Of a stretch of 64,000 bases of DNA, positions 43,414 to 51,159 are shown one piece after another. The notes under the pieces are model-generated. The model was not told the origin of the DNA. It searched no databases and was given only the letters and a program-made list of their open reading frames with translations. How positions within the stretch are numbered: the stretch's first letter is position 1; every line of letters begins with the position of its first letter. Origin of the DNA: Myxococcota bacterium (GTDB lineage Bacteria > Myxococcota_A > UBA9042 > PHBI01 > JAWLBL01); NCBI GenBank assembly GCA_041687695.1, contig JAWLBL010000001.1, forward strand, positions 323,461 through 387,460, read 5' to 3'. Position numbers and translations under genes: made by a program.

Positions 43414-43490
<77 letters not shown>

Positions 43491-43566
43491 TCCAATCGAC
43501 CGCCTCCGGCCCCTCTCCATGGGGGGCTGGACGGCGTGTCGACGGTGTCTCCAGTCGAAGACGTAG

Positions 43567-43643
<77 letters not shown>

Positions 43644-43854: not shown

Positions 43855-45939
43855 TCAAGGCGCGGACCGACAACATCGGACGCCAACCTGGGGGAGCGCA
43901 TAGCTCGGAGGAAGGGCTGACCGGAGGGCAGCTCGCATCTGCGACGCGAATCCGTTGTAGGCCCCGTTGCGTGCCAACCTGTACTCGCCGGCCATGGGTC
44001 CTGTTGGGTCGCTGACGGGCGCCGCATCGAACTCACCGTACCAGTCAGCTAGCCACTCCGCCACGTTGCCGGACATGTCGAGGGCACCGTAGGGACTGCG
44101 CCCATCGGGCTTCGACCCTACCGGCAGAGGCCCTCCGGTTGCGCAGCCGTCCCCCGCAACGTTCATGACTGCGACCGAACACGCGGGTGCAGGACTGTTG
44201 CCCCATGGATAGGTAAGCATCTGCGATTTGCAGTCTCCAGTGGCGAGCTCACACCCGCCACGAGCGGCTCGCTCCCACTCGGCTTCTCGGCACAGCCTCT
44301 GCTTGCCACTCGGCTTGCCGGACCACTCGCAGTACGCCTTGGCCTGTGACCAGTTGATCCCGTTGATCGGGTGCTGCTCGCGGCCAGGGACGCCGTAGCT
44401 GAGGGCCGGGTCGCTTCCGATAGGCGTAGTGCAGGCCCCTGCCGCGATACAGGCCGACCATTGGGCCGCCGTGACCTCCGTCCTGTCGATGAAATAGGCC
44501 GACAGGGTCACCTCGTGCTGGGGAAGCTCACCGGCCTTGCATCCGCCGTCCTTGGTCGCGTTGCAGCCCATCCAGAACGTTCCCGCCGGTACGAAGACCT
44601 CATTGCTGGTCCCCGACTCGCAGGTCTCCCAGCTGGTGCACGTGAAACCTTGGGGACAGTCGACCCCCAAGCTGCCGCAGGTAGGCTCGACGCACGTCCC
44701 GGCCGGGGAGCACTGCAGGCCGGACGCGCACACCCCACACTGGCCCGTGCCACAGCCGTTGTCGCCACACTGCTTGCCGGCGCACTGCGGTTGGCAAACG
44801 CATTGGCCGCTGGCGTCGCACGCCTCGCCAGCCGGACAGCTTCCACAAGTTCCGCCGCAGCCATCAGCCCCGCATGCCTTCGATGCGCAGTCGGGCACAC
44901 ACACGCAGAGGCCAGCCCCCGAACACACCAGCCCCGTCGCACAACCGCCACAGGTGCCTCCGCAGCCGTCGGAGCCGCACACCTTCCCCATGCAGTCGGG
45001 CTGACAGACGCACGCGCCCTCGAGCGAACACGCCTGTCCCGGCTCACAGGTACCACAGGTCCCACCGCAGCCGTCGGAGCCGCAGTCACGGCCCTCGCAG
45101 GACGGCAGGCATTCACACGAGCCCTCGACGCAGACGTGCCCGGGGCCGCAGGCATCGTCGTTCGAGCATTCGCAGTCCGAAGCATCGATGACGCAGCCCT
45201 GTGCCGACTCCTGGCAGGTCGCGACCGCGCAAGCCACGTCAGGAGCTCCGCAGGTGACCGCGGTACCGACGCACACGCCGCCTTGGCAGGCGTCGTCTTC
45301 GGTACAGGCGAACCCGTCGTCACACCCCTTGCCATCCGCACTCACTGGGTTGCTGCACTCACCGGAGGCGGGATCGCACGGACCCACCTCGTGGCAAGCA
45401 TCGAGGGCGGTACAGGTCTTGGAGACTCCGCCCGTGCACGTGCCGGCGTGACAAGCCTCGCCCTCAGTGCAGGCATCGCCGTCATCGCACGGCGCCTCGT
45501 CCTCCAGCGATTCGACGACGCAGACGCCCTCGATGCACGAAAAGAACTGACATGCTGGCGCACCAGCAGCGCAGTCCTCGTCGACGTTGCATTGGGCTAC
45601 CGCGGCGTCGGACCCGTCGACCTCAACCGACGCATCGAGATCATCGCCTTCGCCGTCATCGCTTCCAGCTTCGCTCACGTCCTCGCCGGCCGACCCTTGG
45701 TCATCGCTGTCATCCACATCCTGAACTGGGACCTGGTCTTGGACATCGACCAAGTCGTCGACCGTCGTCTCGCTCACCTTCAGCTCCCCGTCGTCGCGGT
45801 CACCGGGCTCGTCCGCGTCCAGATCGCCATCGTCCGTCTCAGAGTAGGCGGACAATGGATCCCAATCGAAACAGCCGGGAGCGACGATCGAGCTGATGAC
45901 GAAGGTGAAGGTGCCGACGAATCGGATGAGTTCACGCAT
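43855..45939 (-). CDS. Lipoprotein with Cys-rich repeats and a C-terminal SUMF1/FGE-sulfatase (C-type-lectin-like) domain
   Basis: Lipobox APGC; CDDG..CT and four CxPxCxxK/RxCGxD/NGCG repeats; VPAGTFWMGC, IDRTEVT, RLCREAEWERAARG, YPWG, SPYGALDMSGNVAEW, GVRCCR; more A/T at third codon positions than the neighbouring genes. Confidence 0.9.
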   Translation of the reverse strand: MRELIRFVGTFTFVISSIVAPGCFDWDPLSAYSETDDGDLDADEPGDRDDGELKVSETTVDDLVDVQDQVPVQDVDDSDDQGSAGEDVSEAGSDDGEGDDLDASVEVDGSDAAVAQCNVDEDCAAGAPACQFFSCIEGVCVVESLEDEAPCDDGDACTEGEACHAGTCTGGVSKTCTALDACHEVGPCDPASGECSNPVSADGKGCDDGFACTEDDACQGGVCVGTAVTCGAPDVACAVATCQESAQGCVIDASDCECSNDDACGPGHVCVEGSCECLPSCEGRDCGSDGCGGTCGTCEPGQACSLEGACVCQPDCMGKVCGSDGCGGTCGGCATGLVCSGAGLCVCVPDCASKACGADGCGGTCGSCPAGEACDASGQCVCQPQCAGKQCGDNGCGTGQCGVCASGLQCSPAGTCVEPTCGSLGVDCPQGFTCTSWETCESGTSNEVFVPAGTFWMGCNATKDGGCKAGELPQHEVTLSAYFIDRTEVTAAQWSACIAAGACTTPIGSDPALSYGVPGREQHPINGINWSQAKAYCEWSGKPSGKQRLCREAEWERAARGGCELATGDCKSQMLTYPWGNSPAPACSVAVMNVAGDGCATGGPLPVGSKPDGRSPYGALDMSGNVAEWLADWYGEFDAAPVSDPTGPMAGEYRLARNGAYNGFASQMRAALRSALPPSYALPQVGVRCCRSAP

Positions 45940-46182
45940 GCGGCCAGCTCCGGTCTGATGATGGTCCGTCTGCGACAACTAGCCTGAGGCTGGACGAGAC
46001 GTCAAGGCCAGCTCGGGCGCCTATCGAGCACCGTTGCGGGCCGGGTTGTGCGTGGGTGCGGTGGGATGGCAAGATGGCCCGGAACCACCATCAACGAGCC
46101 TCCCGGATGCGTGTTGCGTACGATGGGATCGCGAGATCCCGTTGCGACGCAGGGCGCGGTCTCGGAGGAGAGGAGAGGCGGG

Positions 46183-47004
46183 ATGAAGCTGTCCCTGAAC
46201 CCCTGGATCAGGCTGAACCAGTTCACGGTCGGTCGTAGGTTGTTCGCCATCGCGCAAGTCAAGCGACTGGCCGAAGGACGTGGGCTGAACGCCCTGGTCG
46301 AGCGCTGCGCGCAGGCCGAGCAGCTGGACAAGCAGGTGCGCGAGCTCGAGCGGCGCTACAAGGTCGACAAGAACCGCCGGGTCGACCCGCGCCTTCAGGC
46401 GCTCGATCCGCAGATCGACAAGCTTGTCGGTGCGATCTACCGCATCTGCGTCGAGGTGACGGCCTCGCTCGCCGGCGAGCCCGAGGGCGATGCGGCGGCC
46501 CGGATCGTGCGCGAGTTGTATCCGGGTGGACCCATCGCAATCACGACGCTGACCTACGTGGATCAGGGCAGCGAGGTCGGAGCCATCGTCGAGCACCTGT
46601 CGCCCGACGGTGACCTCGATGCCGAGGCCCAGACCGTCGGCCTCGTGGCCCAGGTCGCGCGCCTCGGAAAGCTCAACGCCGAGTTCATCGATCTGCTCCC
46701 GAAGGGCGCCGACGAGCTGGTCCGTTGGGATCACGTCCGCGCGGCGAACGCCCAGGGCGACGAGCGGCTCCGCGCCATCGTGGCCTGGATCCTGGGTCAG
46801 TTCCCCGACCCTCACCAGGCCGAGGCCCGCGCGGCCCTGCTGGAGCCCATCCGACATCAGGACGAGGCCATCCGCGCCGCCCTGTCGGCCCGTCGCGCTG
46901 TTCGTGACGTCGACCCCGTCAGCGGCGAGGAGATCGTCGACGAGGCCAATCCCGAGACGACGGTCGCGCCCGTGCCCGAGTCAGAGCCCGAAGCGGTCGC
47001 TTGA
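46183..47004 (+). CDS. Helical hypothetical protein resembling the DUF6261 family (273 aa)
   Basis: Strong RBS (GGAGGAGAGGAGAGG); pattern LDPQIDKLVGAIY ... AAARIVRELYPGG..AITTLTY.DQ ... VGL..QVARL..LNAEF, which recalls DUF6261-like proteins from memory only. Confidence 0.7.
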   Translation: MKLSLNPWIRLNQFTVGRRLFAIAQVKRLAEGRGLNALVERCAQAEQLDKQVRELERRYKVDKNRRVDPRLQALDPQIDKLVGAIYRICVEVTASLAGEPEGDAAARIVRELYPGGPIAITTLTYVDQGSEVGAIVEHLSPDGDLDAEAQTVGLVAQVARLGKLNAEFIDLLPKGADELVRWDHVRAANAQGDERLRAIVAWILGQFPDPHQAEARAALLEPIRHQDEAIRAALSARRAVRDVDPVSGEEIVDEANPETTVAPVPESEPEAVA

Positions 47005-47020
47005 CCCCGTCGGGTGATCC

Positions 47021-47064
47021 CGCCAAAGGCCCGGTTGCGCACGCGACCGGGCCTTTGGCGTTTT
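47021..47064 (+). terminator. Rho-independent terminator
   Basis: CGCCAAAGGCCCGGTTGC-GCAC-GCGACCGGGCCTTTGGCG-TTTT, 16 bp after the stop codon. Confidence 0.85.
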
Positions 47065-47113
47065 CGCCCTCCGCCGCCACCGGGCCCGCTCTCCCCGCGT
47101 CACTCACTCCGAG

Positions 47114-47423
47114 CGGCACCGGACCACCCTGGCTCGTTCGCTGGCCCACGCCAGCCGGTATCAGACCACCCCTCGAGGGGGTCGGACCCCCTCGAGGGGT
47201 GGTCTGATACCGGCCTCGATCGGCTAGCGAGCAAGGCCACCTGGTCCGATACCAGCCTCCGTCGCCCAGCGGGCGACGCCCACCTGGTCTGCTATCGGCC
47301 ACCGTCGTCCAGCGAGCGACGCAGCCTGGTATCGCACCACCGTTCCTCGGCCAACGAGGCACCTAGGGTGGTCCGATACCGGCCTTTCTGGCCGGGCGAG
47401 CACCAGCACCAAGTACACTACCA
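47114..47423. repeat. Non-coding array of eight 13-bp quasi-palindromic repeats (TGGTCYGATACCR, either orientation) with 42-44 bp period and unique spacers
   Basis: Copies start at 47114, 47156, 47200, 47242, 47285, 47327, 47369 and 47411 (the first and last are degenerate). Confidence 0.8.
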
Positions 47424-48197: not shown

Positions 48198-50099
48198 TCA
48201 GTCCGCGTCTGGATCTCCTGCGTCCTCGCTCGGCGACACGTCCTCGCTCGGCGGCACGTCCTCGCTCGGCGGCACGTCCTCGCTCGGCGGCACGTCCTCG
48301 CTCGGCGGCACGTCCTCGCTCGGCGGCACGTCCTCAGTCGGCTCTACGTCCTCGGTCGGCTCCACGTCCTCGGCCGGCGGCACGTCCTCGGTGGGGCCGA
48401 CGTCCTCGATCACCTCCTCGATGGGGCCGACGTCGTCGATGACCTCCTCGGCCGCGTCCTCGGTCGGGCCGGCGTCGGTCGGACCGGCGTCGGGATCGGG
48501 GTCTGCAGCGGCCTCGCAGTCCTCGGGGCAGAACACCTCTTCGAGATCGCCGCACACGCCGTCGCCGCAAGTGGGGGTGCCGCCACCGCCACAGTCCTGC
48601 TGACACGTGAACTGCTCGAAGATGTCGTCGCAGATCCCGTTGCCGCACTTGTCAGGGCAGTCCTGGGCGCAGGTGAGGAACTCGAGCAGCCCGCACACGC
48701 CGTCACCACACACGTCGGGGCCCCCGCCGCCGCAGTCGTCGGGGCAGAGGAACTCCTCGCCCTGCTCGCAGACGCCGTTGCCGCAGCCGGGCTGCGCGTT
48801 GCACTGGCCGCAGTCGTTCGGGCAGGACTCGCAGGTCTCGGTGGCCGAGCACAGGTTGTCGCCGCAGACGCCGCAGACGTTGTTGCCGCTGCCGCACACG
48901 CCCGCCGCGCACTTGTCGCCGGTCGTGCAGGGGTCGCCGTCGTCGCACGTGGCGCCCTCGTTGCTCTGGTACTCGCAGCCGACGCCCTCGACGCACAGGT
49001 CCAGCGTGCAGGGGTTGCCGTCGTTGCAGTCCTTCTCGAAGCCGCCCTGGCACTCGCCCTCCTTGCAGGTCGCGTTGTCCAGGCACGGGTCGTCGACCGC
49101 GCAGGGGGCGCCGTCGTTGCGCGCCGTCTCGACGCACGCGCCGGTCGCCGGGTCGCAGGTGTTGTCGGAGCAGGCGCTCGACGGCGCGTCGCAGCCGACG
49201 ATGGTCGCCACGTCCAGCACGCACAGCCCCTCGTCCGAGCAGGTCAGCCGCCCGTTGCACAGGTCGGCGTCCTCGAGCAGGGCGCAGTCGTGCGGCCCCT
49301 CGCAGGTGCAGACCGGCGTGCCGAGGCAGAAGCCGCCCGAGCAGGTGTCGCCCGTCGTGCAGGCGCTGCCGTCCGAGCACGCGGTGCCGTCGTCCTTGGG
49401 CTTGGGCTGGCACTGGCCGTTGAGCGGGTTGCAGGCGTTGTCGGCGCACGGGCCGGCGTCCGGGCAGACCACGACCGTCGCCGGATCCAGCCGACACTGG
49501 CCGCCGTTGCACTCGAGCGAGCCGTTGCAGAGGTTGCCGTCGTCGTAGGCGACGCAGTCCTCGTCCTTGTTGCAGGTGCACTGGCCGCTCGGCGTGCCCT
49601 TGCACTGGCCGCTGAGATCGCACAGGTCGTTGGTCGTACACGGATCCTGATCGTTACAGGGCCCGGTCACCGGCGTGTGGGTGCAGCCCTCGCCGGGCTT
49701 GCAGCCGTCGGCGGTGCAAGGGCTGCCGTCGTCGCAGTCGGTTACGGCGTTGCCCGCCACGCACTCGCCGGCCTCGCACCACGACTCGGCGCTGCACGGC
49801 TCGCCGTCGTCGCAGGGCGCGTAGTCGGCGGCCACCCCGGCCACGCAGGTCTTGCTGTCGGGGTCGCACAGGGCGGCCTCGCAGGTGCCGAGGCCGGCGA
49901 CCTTGCCGACGCAGTCGGCGTGGCCCTCGCAGCCGACCTCGCCGACGTCTCCCTTGACGTCGGCGCCGACGTCCGAGGTCCCCTGGGTGCCTTCGGGGCC
50001 ATCCGAGCAGGCGACGAGGCCGGCCAGCGGCGCGGCGAGCAAGACGAGCAGCGCGCGGGGCGCCGCGAGCGAAGCGATGGACGACGGACTAGGCCACAT
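48198..50099 (-). CDS. Cys-rich surface lipoprotein (CDDGxPCT and CGDGxC..DC repeats) with an acidic hexapeptide-repeat tail (633 aa)
   Basis: Lipobox LVAC; many CDDG.PCT..D.C..G.C modules; C-terminal (EDVPPS)n. Confidence 0.88.
   Translation of the reverse strand: MWPSPSSIASLAAPRALLVLLAAPLAGLVACSDGPEGTQGTSDVGADVKGDVGEVGCEGHADCVGKVAGLGTCEAALCDPDSKTCVAGVAADYAPCDDGEPCSAESWCEAGECVAGNAVTDCDDGSPCTADGCKPGEGCTHTPVTGPCNDQDPCTTNDLCDLSGQCKGTPSGQCTCNKDEDCVAYDDGNLCNGSLECNGGQCRLDPATVVVCPDAGPCADNACNPLNGQCQPKPKDDGTACSDGSACTTGDTCSGGFCLGTPVCTCEGPHDCALLEDADLCNGRLTCSDEGLCVLDVATIVGCDAPSSACSDNTCDPATGACVETARNDGAPCAVDDPCLDNATCKEGECQGGFEKDCNDGNPCTLDLCVEGVGCEYQSNEGATCDDGDPCTTGDKCAAGVCGSGNNVCGVCGDNLCSATETCESCPNDCGQCNAQPGCGNGVCEQGEEFLCPDDCGGGGPDVCGDGVCGLLEFLTCAQDCPDKCGNGICDDIFEQFTCQQDCGGGGTPTCGDGVCGDLEEVFCPEDCEAAADPDPDAGPTDAGPTEDAAEEVIDDVGPIEEVIEDVGPTEDVPPAEDVEPTEDVEPTEDVPPSEDVPPSEDVPPSEDVPPSEDVPPSEDVSPSEDAGDPDAD
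48221..48400. repeat. Coding 18-bp tandem repeat, about 10 units (5 identical), encoding EDVPPS-like hexapeptides
   Basis: CGTCCTCGCTCGGCGGCA repeated perfectly at 48239-48328, with degenerate flanking units. Confidence 0.9.
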
Positions 50100-50253
50100 G
50101 CGGGATCCCCCCCCTCTCGGAGCAGTGCGTGGCGAAGCCTGCCCGAGCAGGGCCGCCGGCTGCAACCCCCACGTTTCACAGCCGCCCCCCAGACGTTGCC
50201 CCGCGCGCCGGCTCGCGTGGTAGGCTCCGCGCGACCGAACGAGGAGGCGAGCC

Positions 50254-51159
50254 ATGTCCACCCATCCCAAGTCGCCCGCGCGGACCGCCGCGCGCCCCGC
50301 CGTCCGCCGGCTCCCGCGCGTGCTGGTCGCGCTGCTGAGCCTCGGCGCGCTGACCCTGGTGAGCCCGGGCGAGGCCCAGGCGCGCAAGAAGAAGCCCAAG
50401 AGCGATCCGTCCTACCTGTACCTCGACGGCGTCCGCGAGCGCGTCTTCTGGAACGACGGCGACTCGTTCAAGGTGATGGAGGGCTCGCGCAAGGGGCTCA
50501 AGGCGCGTCTGGTCGGTTACAACACCCTCGAGTCCTATGGGCCGGTGCACTTCTGGGGCGGCTTCCACGGCTGGGAGCTGTACCGCATCGCCAAGGACGG
50601 CGCGAAGTTCGCCCAGAAGGGCGAGTGGACCTGCAAGGTCATGGGCCCGGTCGACGGCTACGGGCGCGCGCTGGTCGAGTGCCCGGATCTGCGCAAGGCC
50701 ATCATCAGGAAGGGCTACGCCCACGTCTTCGCGGTGGGCGAGGAGCCCGACGCCGAGCTGGTCGAGGCGCAGCGGCAGGCGCAGAACGAGCGGCTGGGCA
50801 TCTGGTCCAAGGGCATCCCGACCCACATCGTGACCAGCATCCACTCGACCGACGAGCTGACCGACGAGGACCGGGCCAAGGGCAAGACCAACAGCTACAA
50901 CCGCGTGTGCGACACCCGGACCGGCAAGTCCTTCGTCATCGAGCACACGACGCCCTTCAAGCCGTGCGACGCCTGGTGCTACGGGGCGAGCTGCATGGTG
51001 TACCTGCCCTTCGACGTGCGCTTCGGCGACAAGCGCCCGGCCTGCGTGGTCGGCGACGGCGGCGAGCGCAATCGGTTGGTGGCGGCGCCCGTCCTGGGGT
51101 ACCCGTCGACCGAGACCAAGGACGACAAGAGCGCGCGGCAGGCGCGGGGGGACAAGTGA
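50254..51159 (+). CDS. Secreted thermonuclease (SNase-like) family protein with a Cys-containing C-terminal extension
   Basis: GAGGAGG RBS; signal peptide ending EAQA; NDGDSF, RLVGYNTLE, DGYGRAL, IRKGYA, AQNERLGIW. Confidence 0.85.
   Translation: MSTHPKSPARTAARPAVRRLPRVLVALLSLGALTLVSPGEAQARKKKPKSDPSYLYLDGVRERVFWNDGDSFKVMEGSRKGLKARLVGYNTLESYGPVHFWGGFHGWELYRIAKDGAKFAQKGEWTCKVMGPVDGYGRALVECPDLRKAIIRKGYAHVFAVGEEPDAELVEAQRQAQNERLGIWSKGIPTHIVTSIHSTDELTDEDRAKGKTNSYNRVCDTRTGKSFVIEHTTPFKPCDAWCYGASCMVYLPFDVRFGDKRPACVVGDGGERNRLVAAPVLGYPSTETKDDKSARQARGDK

Follow-up and report, generated by a model that had tools for sequence, protein, structure and literature searches.

A DUF6261-like gene family accompanied by satellite arrays of conserved period and private sequence

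Introduction

What is a regular series of palindrome-like motifs doing behind the gene of a small helical protein? The question is raised by a locus of a Myxococcota bacterium where, within the 64,000-nt stretch of DNA that was analysed (hereafter the window), a gene coding for a 273-aa DUF6261-like protein (46183..47004, + strand) is followed by 13-bp quasi-palindromes recurring about every four helical turns. A preliminary description based on these letters took them for motif copies separated by unique spacers and proposed a gene-plus-array system, possibly phased sites for a dimeric protein, an invertible cassette array or a multi-hairpin RNA. Bacterial satellites of fixed length and free sequence have been described as enigmatic, and an unknown polymerising, length-measuring protein needing a constant repeat size has been proposed for them (available text of PMC8161180); the present locus and its relatives name a candidate. 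The arrays alone thus belong to a described but unexplained class, and their pairing with a gene was not found in print. Our literature search returned no description of it, with subscription papers largely outside its coverage and the supplements of Subirana and Messeguer a place where such arrays could be listed, and DUF6261 itself appeared as passing mentions in the accessible portions of Streptococcus papers.

A satellite that inverts about a central palindrome

Eight motifs do occur at 47114, 47156, 47200, 47242, 47285, 47327, 47369 and 47411, with start-to-start distances of 42, 44, 42, 43, 42, 42 and 42 bp, but the last one is weak: TGGTCYGATACCR with at most two mismatches fits seven of the eight and fails at 47411, just beyond the part conserved in a second genomic copy. 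Matches to TGGTCYGATACCR in the window number 12 against 2.64 ± 1.65 expected, a count reached in none of 100 shuffles, and the autocorrelation of the array peaks at 42 (0.46), 43 and 85 bp. The inter-motif stretches turned out not to be unique: they are homologous to one another (mean alignment score 16.3, compared with 9.6 ± 0.5 and a maximum of 11.5 in 1000 shuffles), degenerate copies of a single unit, with 84% identity over 43 nt between the units at 47237 and 47280. Apart from the second copy, the rest of the genome holds only short chance matches to them.

The orientations first assigned to the motifs were partly correct. Those at 47114 and 47156 are reversed, but the sixth unit (47327), also read as reversed, is not: sequence in + orientation surrounds it, and the apparent inversion is confined to the 5 bp enclosed by its 4-bp TGGT/ACCA arms. 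The inversion itself lies at a palindrome around 47184, whose arms (47115-47183 and 47185-47253) are 77% complementary. The satellite consists of a left arm of two reverse-orientation units (47114..47183, − strand; motifs 47114 and 47156), a central palindrome at whose axis, 47184, it changes direction (47169..47199), and a right arm of five degenerate 42-43-bp units (47185..47410, + strand; motifs 47200, 47242, 47285, 47327 and 47369), each combining the 13-bp quasi-palindrome with a second, weaker palindrome ~21 bp away. The central palindrome holds a G-rich hairpin that is present too in other arrays of the same gene subfamily. Rather than a spacer array, this is a non-coding degenerate satellite with a 42-44-bp unit (mostly 42-43) whose two arms point away from a central palindrome.

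A coding repeat is ruled out, as originally argued, by periods of 43 and 44 bp, which are not multiples of 3, and also by stops in several frames. The statement that this is no simple VNTR holds in part, since the array is a degenerate tandem repeat but one whose period is fixed family-wide. A CRISPR array is likewise ruled out, in line with the first reading, and so are foreign spacers, because the spacers are mutually homologous and find no match elsewhere in the genome. CRISPR and TIGR-Tas systems do share with this locus a gene beside a regularly spaced array, but the spacers here are degenerate unit copies, not acquired or target-matching, and no Cas or Nop domain was found. The Nop domain was absent from Pfam, PDB sequence and fold searches, an absence from fold lists that does not exclude it, and instead of the variable paired spacers of TIGR-Tas whole units are degenerate copies. 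A known RNA is ruled out too, all seven Rfam matches lying under the gathering score.

Duplication of the whole module

The array forms part of a 1.38-kb module (46035..47410, + strand) made up of a ~150-bp leader, the gene, a hairpin and the array. Its blastn duplicate on contig C6 of the same genome (G000) is 89.9% identical over 1392 bp and sits between unrelated flanks, with no similarity outside. In the 7.97-Mb genome, clusters of at least three TGGTCYGATACCR copies exist only at this locus and at C6:67319-67586, and these two clusters contain all six exact matches. All seven motifs stand in the same sequence and face the same way in both copies, which, for these two copies only, speaks against the shufflon or invertible cassette array initially considered. 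Between the copies, motif positions differ less often than third codon positions (5/91 versus 37/273; p 0.04), and the comparison of motifs with spacers (5/91 versus 21/177) is not significant (p 0.13). An 8-bp direct repeat at the module ends is absent from the second copy and was judged a chance occurrence. MITE features were sought by eye at the ends of the module and of related arrays that lack the gene (orphans hereafter), and neither terminal inverted repeats nor target-site duplications were seen; nor did any closely related strain offer a clean empty site for comparison. A single orphan, at C2:212446, is partially related to the window array.

Between gene and array lies a terminator-like inverted repeat (47022..47064, + strand) with an 18-bp stem and a short T run, in which two base pairs change compensatorily in the C6 copy. 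The preliminary description placed the array just after a terminator; a hairpin does separate the two, but only four T come after it (47022-47059) and a consensus terminator scan gives it no score. Its compensatory changes are consistent with a terminator on the strand of the gene. Given this hairpin, the array is likely outside the mRNA.

As for the surroundings, two tRNA-Met genes lie 2.5 kb upstream of the module (window positions 43414-43643). Genes for two Cys-rich repeat proteins flank it (43855-45978 and 48198-50399), one of them with an FGE-sulfatase domain, and the second gene (48198-50399) contains a coding 18-bp repeat at ~48240-48400.

A predicted helical homodimer

The 273-aa protein, which ends in a Pro/Ala/Glu-rich tail, is filed as DUF6261-like; its own match to PF19775 (DUF6261), with an E value of 0.15, falls short of the cut-off. 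Its paralogue on contig C18 passes that cut-off, and PF19775 is matched by 99 of 137 aligned homologues at E ≤ 0.01; in the top ESM Atlas clusters, DUF6261 accounts for 20-32% of members, with a low recognition value. A homologue search retrieved 705 representatives at E ≤ 0.001, and the ESM Atlas neighbours are mostly Myxococcota. Single-protein queries of viral contigs, phages and plasmids returned no relative, and scans of metagenome and genome contigs no close one.

The AlphaFold2 model is all-helical (pLDDT 94.2, pTM 0.77). A homodimer is supported by a prediction score of 0.44, against 0.00 for the best control, with contacts through residues 3-11 and 194-224; the runs agree in at least 89% of contacts and reach a pLDDT of at least 80, and the mark used is reached by 20 of 30 solved pairs and by 1 of 23 single chains. 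The conserved residues are G17, R18, R19, D75, D79, P114, G116, R216, R237, R238 and D242, the arginines at 18, 19, 216, 237 and 238 being kept in 80-97% of sequences, and the median net charge of the family is near zero (-1). None of the His, Tyr or Ser positions in the family alignment is invariant, and catalytic signatures of the HUH, Tyr or Ser type are likewise not conserved. Foldseek gave no match to the model at E ≤ 0.001, and the best VIA-align match (Z 10.4, rmsd 2.5 over 103 residues of a four-helix bundle) falls in the generic helical-bundle range; the lack of a specific fold match does not show that the predicted fold is new. No PDB sequence matched below E 0.05, no known DNA-binding fold was recognised in the protein, and PADLOC matched none of 16 family members.

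Conserved period and private sequence

The gene profile is patchily distributed, being present in 60 of 401 genomes of the phylum. We fetched 154 homologous loci, kept 130 after removal of duplicates and scored the 95 that were full-length with both flanks. A period of 41-45 or 83-89 bp occurred within 500 bp of the gene in 69 of the 95 (56 downstream, 17 upstream), as opposed to 93 of 1500 random windows (6%) and 8 of 182 far flanks. The count stayed at 69 after screening for N runs and hexamer microsatellites. These loci are spread over 27 of 34 genomes and every one of the 12 families is represented, although a single family supplies 53 of the 95 scored loci, so that loci are not independent. 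The remaining 26 loci, and 7 of the 34 genomes, have no array by the period test. These results strongly support the gene-plus-array idea advanced at the outset, which had looked to homologous genes for a periodic motif alongside.

The period was 42 bp in 40, 43 in 37 and 44 in 10 of 93 calls (87 at 42-44), of which about 15 were later dropped as artefacts or doubtful. Among the 74 retained arrays, sequence similarity is high when the proteins share above 80% identity and drops to background below ~70%. The period of the arrays is thus conserved across the family and their sequence is private. Their position is less constant: in one family (f45), the array is upstream of the gene at 11 and downstream at 2 of 19 loci. 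A terminator-like hairpin precedes the array at many homologous loci, and many homologues have arrays that are not clearly palindromic.

A conserved partner gene was looked for among 156 flanking ORF pieces (72 downstream, 84 upstream), and no neighbour recurred. A minority of the flanking genes are for defence (type I-G CRISPR, type I restriction, toxin-antitoxin). At L002, L003, L006 and L017 the module is embedded in a type I-G CRISPR-Cas locus, with a divergent cas4-type gene on one side and a csb1/cas7 (PF09617) or cas3-like gene on the other. We also tried the hairpin ACCCC-N4-GGGG as a universal seed marker. It stands behind 12 of 121 genes and in none of 108 far flanks, but it is common in collection scans, where it also matches a tRNA T-arm, and of 83 loci fetched with it one had an array and none a family gene, for which reason it was dropped as a marker.

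Gene-linked and orphan arrays in one genome

Scanning the genome for strong arrays (period 20-22, 41-44 or 82-88 bp, with our own codon-model gene calls) yielded 91, namely 17 coding arrays, 18 beside a gene for a helical protein of 230-330 aa and 56 orphans; the window array and its C6 copy fall under the strong-array threshold. In an independent TRF analysis, 58 of 292 non-coding repeats have periods of 41-44 bp, compared with 4 at 38-40 and 6 at 45-47. Additional peaks at 13, 24-28, 32-33 and 54-58 bp may be further fixed-period families.

Gene-plus-array pairs number about 20 and span several helical families: the DUF6261-like group, comprising three subfamilies joined by profile comparison, and further ones. 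That comparison did not join a second helical family and two others to DUF6261, for which there was only an ESM lead (0.81). The further families were identified via their arrays, which makes their linkage circular; the non-circular tests are the profile-only ORFs of the genome (E < 0.002), 9 of 10 of which have an array against 128 of 5376 genes overall, and the loci of the second helical family, mostly from other genomes, with an array at 13 of 24 scorable ones. A single-sequence model of this second family reached a pLDDT of 42. Further helical families (237-293 aa) lack a Pfam assignment but share both the Pro/Ala-rich tail and the array habit, among them A3 (L157, L160, L161, L165, L156, L159, L164), L158 and L163. 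A3 occurs in 11 of 41 genomes, and its alignment shows I-x-x-G-x-G-x-x-D-x-A-x-D as a conserved motif.

An orphan relative (at least 60 bits) exists for 13 of 19 gene-linked arrays, and only 13 of 51 orphans have a gene-linked one. Truncated gene copies are found at G000:C39:58555-58704 and C54:3401-3688, and the one at C39 still has its complete array, an example of how a cassette can turn into an orphan. The question of whether the motif is a genome-wide REP-like element unlinked to the gene, posed in the preliminary description, receives a divided answer: TGGTCYGATACCR clusters only at the two gene copies, but arrays of the same class occur throughout the genome and about three quarters of the non-coding ones lack such a gene.

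This abundance of gene-less arrays would fit independent repeats of the REP/BIME or MITE kind that are moved by another enzyme, with the genes co-inserting or sharing hot spots. Their REP-like placement and the 11 matches to Y1 transposases in the genome agree with that reading, as does the case of Porphyromonas gingivalis, whose BrickBuilt and 464/PgRS MITEs are dispersed between genes and carry minisatellites of 23- or 41-nt units that expand and contract (available text of PMC4596501). These MITEs differ by their IS5-type terminal inverted repeats, leader and tail, none of which was seen here, and no partner gene is described for them in that text. Moreover, 73% of scored loci have a linked array as opposed to 4-6% of controls, the arrays being unrelated in sequence from case to case, and 42-44-bp windows of any kind occur at 3 of 23 Y1 loci, about background, none with this array family. 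Independent repeats appear, on balance, a very improbable explanation.

Orphan orientation bears on the possibility that the array is transcribed into a multi-hairpin RNA bound by the protein (antitoxin-like, scaffold or guide precursor), with RNA processing setting the period. In all four scorable co-directional orphans the orientation of the gene-linked relative with respect to transcription is kept (both orientations occur in another genus, g64), the array has a very stable fold as RNA (z -12.9), some modules are found in defence loci, and 52-nt repeats of Bacillus are reported to be transcribed (PMC8161180, in its accessible part). Nevertheless, such folding is a trivial consequence of palindromic units, the array lies past a terminator-like hairpin, is up- or downstream depending on the locus and reads both ways, and there are no foreign spacers, no Rfam family at gathering score and no PADLOC match in the 16 members. 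We consider an RNA partner distinctly unlikely.

A docking model for the neighbouring protein

The array fits the constant-size, variable-sequence bacterial satellites of Subirana and Messeguer, and the DUF6261-like protein is likely a candidate partner of such satellites. Theirs are also non-coding, intergenic and patchy across species, with several families per genome that share one repeat length and have unrelated sequences (accessible parts of PMC8161180, PMC6749651 and PMC8625621). In the same way, we find intergenic non-coding tandem units with periods of 42-44 bp, including non-multiples of 3, and several sequence-unrelated array families within the genome and across species. The differences concern unit length and genetic linkage, with units of 20-23 and 52 nt (46 nt in Leptospira) and no linked gene in the accessible parts of those papers, whereas the arrays studied here have units of 42-44 bp (a minority of 21-22) and are tied to a gene family. 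Those authors also noted that 21 bp corresponds to two helical turns (PMC8161180, PMC6749651, as far as accessible).

Our leading model, which we hold to be about as probable as all its competitors together, is that the array, carried in a spreading cassette, provides phased docking sites on DNA for the protein encoded next to it. It takes up the phased sites for a dimeric protein first suggested for this locus, a dimer being predicted. In a 2020 article in the Journal of Bacteriology, Subirana and Messeguer reportedly treat a 22/44-nt repeat class. According to the docking model, satellite and DUF6261-like gene would travel as one cassette, and the predicted dimer would dock on the array DNA with one unit per four helical turns. 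The geometry of the protein would set the period, and selection would act on unit length while the sequence drifts with concerted evolution; the unit length would stay fixed and the sequence drift because the dimer binds once per four helical turns. Units would multiply locally by slippage or unequal exchange. Since no catalytic motif could be recognised in the protein, transfer to new sites is assumed to depend on an outside enzyme or on recombination. That DNA would be the ligand is hinted at by arrays that lie past a terminator-like hairpin, upstream of the gene in some clades and bidirectional here.

A comparable layout is that of sopC/SopB of the F plasmid (type Ia ParABS), where tandem 43-bp repeats with an internal palindrome stand beside the gene of the dimer that binds them (PMC3177203, available text). 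The module differs from it in having no ParA or conserved partner gene (no ParA-type NTPase recurred in the 156 flanking ORF pieces) and no ParB/HTH fold, in being chromosomal and multi-copy, with no relative in plasmid or phage collections, and in its non-conserved repeat sequence. The gene-plus-array element is real and stands outside any defined system. For sopC/SopB, REP/RAYT and the P. gingivalis MITEs alike, defining features fail or were not seen here.

Several observations count against the docking model: the protein has no known DNA-binding fold, many orphans lack a cognate gene, arrays are non-palindromic in some homologues, the motif-versus-spacer difference does not reach significance, RNA folding is strong and there is a hint of orientation bias to transcription. 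The candidate protein is small, soluble and confidently modelled, and it occurs naturally in dozens of sequence variants that each come with an array. An open question is thereby reduced to simple binding tests in which cognate and non-cognate pairs serve as controls. Were binding to prove sequence-specific, the protein would represent a new fold for DNA binding, available in many mutually orthogonal pairs of protein and array.

Turnover and spread of the arrays

Arrays change rapidly between relatives. The four genomes of genus g64 share a gene-linked array family with orphan copies at mostly non-orthologous sites and a common sharp end, and two orthologous gaps contain different arrays, a single degenerate unit or none. 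Orphans at non-orthologous sites and differing orthologous gaps show that arrays arrive, expand and are replaced quickly, a turnover that is hard to square with tight sequence-specific recognition. Clean empty sites with target duplication were not seen in the g64 comparisons, and some modules are syntenic across a genus. In arbitrary samples, two gene-rich genomes had five arrays in 400 kb, and six genomes without match to two family profiles had none in 400 kb and one in 350 kb. This lone array comes after the remnant of a short ORF, which gave no profile match but whose tail, judged by eye, resembles that of the family. The sampling is no more than suggestive.

Another reading is that the protein itself plays the part that RAYT has for REPs and is responsible for seeding, measuring and spreading the satellites, in a selfish cassette whose gene-less arrays would be non-autonomous derivatives. 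Features shared with REP/REPIN/BIME-RAYT (TnpA-REP) systems are cognate palindromic repeats on the flanks of a gene, more than one such family in a genome and dispersed extragenic copies enriched in convergent gaps (PMC8266576, as far as its text is accessible), an enrichment that holds here for orphans (23/53 versus 223/1554; p 1.6e-7). The patchy presence of the gene, the ~20 pairs in one genome, the sharp-ended duplication of a module into unrelated flanks, the orphan relatives of most gene-linked arrays and the g64 family with its common sharp end and differing gaps all agree with active spreading. Yet the protein is no HUH transposase, lacking a conserved His pair, an invariant Tyr or any conserved Ser signature, and shows no clear fold match; the gene is multi-copy, the units are head-to-tail with a fixed period, Y1 loci are not array-enriched, no target-site duplication or terminal repeat is visible by eye, and some modules keep their synteny. 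We regard a spreading role of the protein as unlikely; were it true, this would be a new kind of mobile element.

A bolder reading concerns the family as a whole. DUF6261-like proteins might constitute a new class of selfish gene-plus-satellite cassettes in which the dimer, serving as a ruler of 42-43 bp, would bind and homogenise its private satellite and spread it through the chromosome, and this would be the origin of constant-length bacterial satellites; in this full form we hold the proposal to be doubtful.

Other repeats were noted as well. A separate GC-rich palindromic repeat abuts satellites at G000:C2:212742, C9:43900, C29:102185, C36:50271 and C55:13524, and one of its relatives adjoins a Y1 transposase. 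In genus g64, a 160-bp element has dozens of dispersed copies in the four genomes (L094:2909-3070; L182:1364-1733), one of which sits inside a cobalamin riboswitch.
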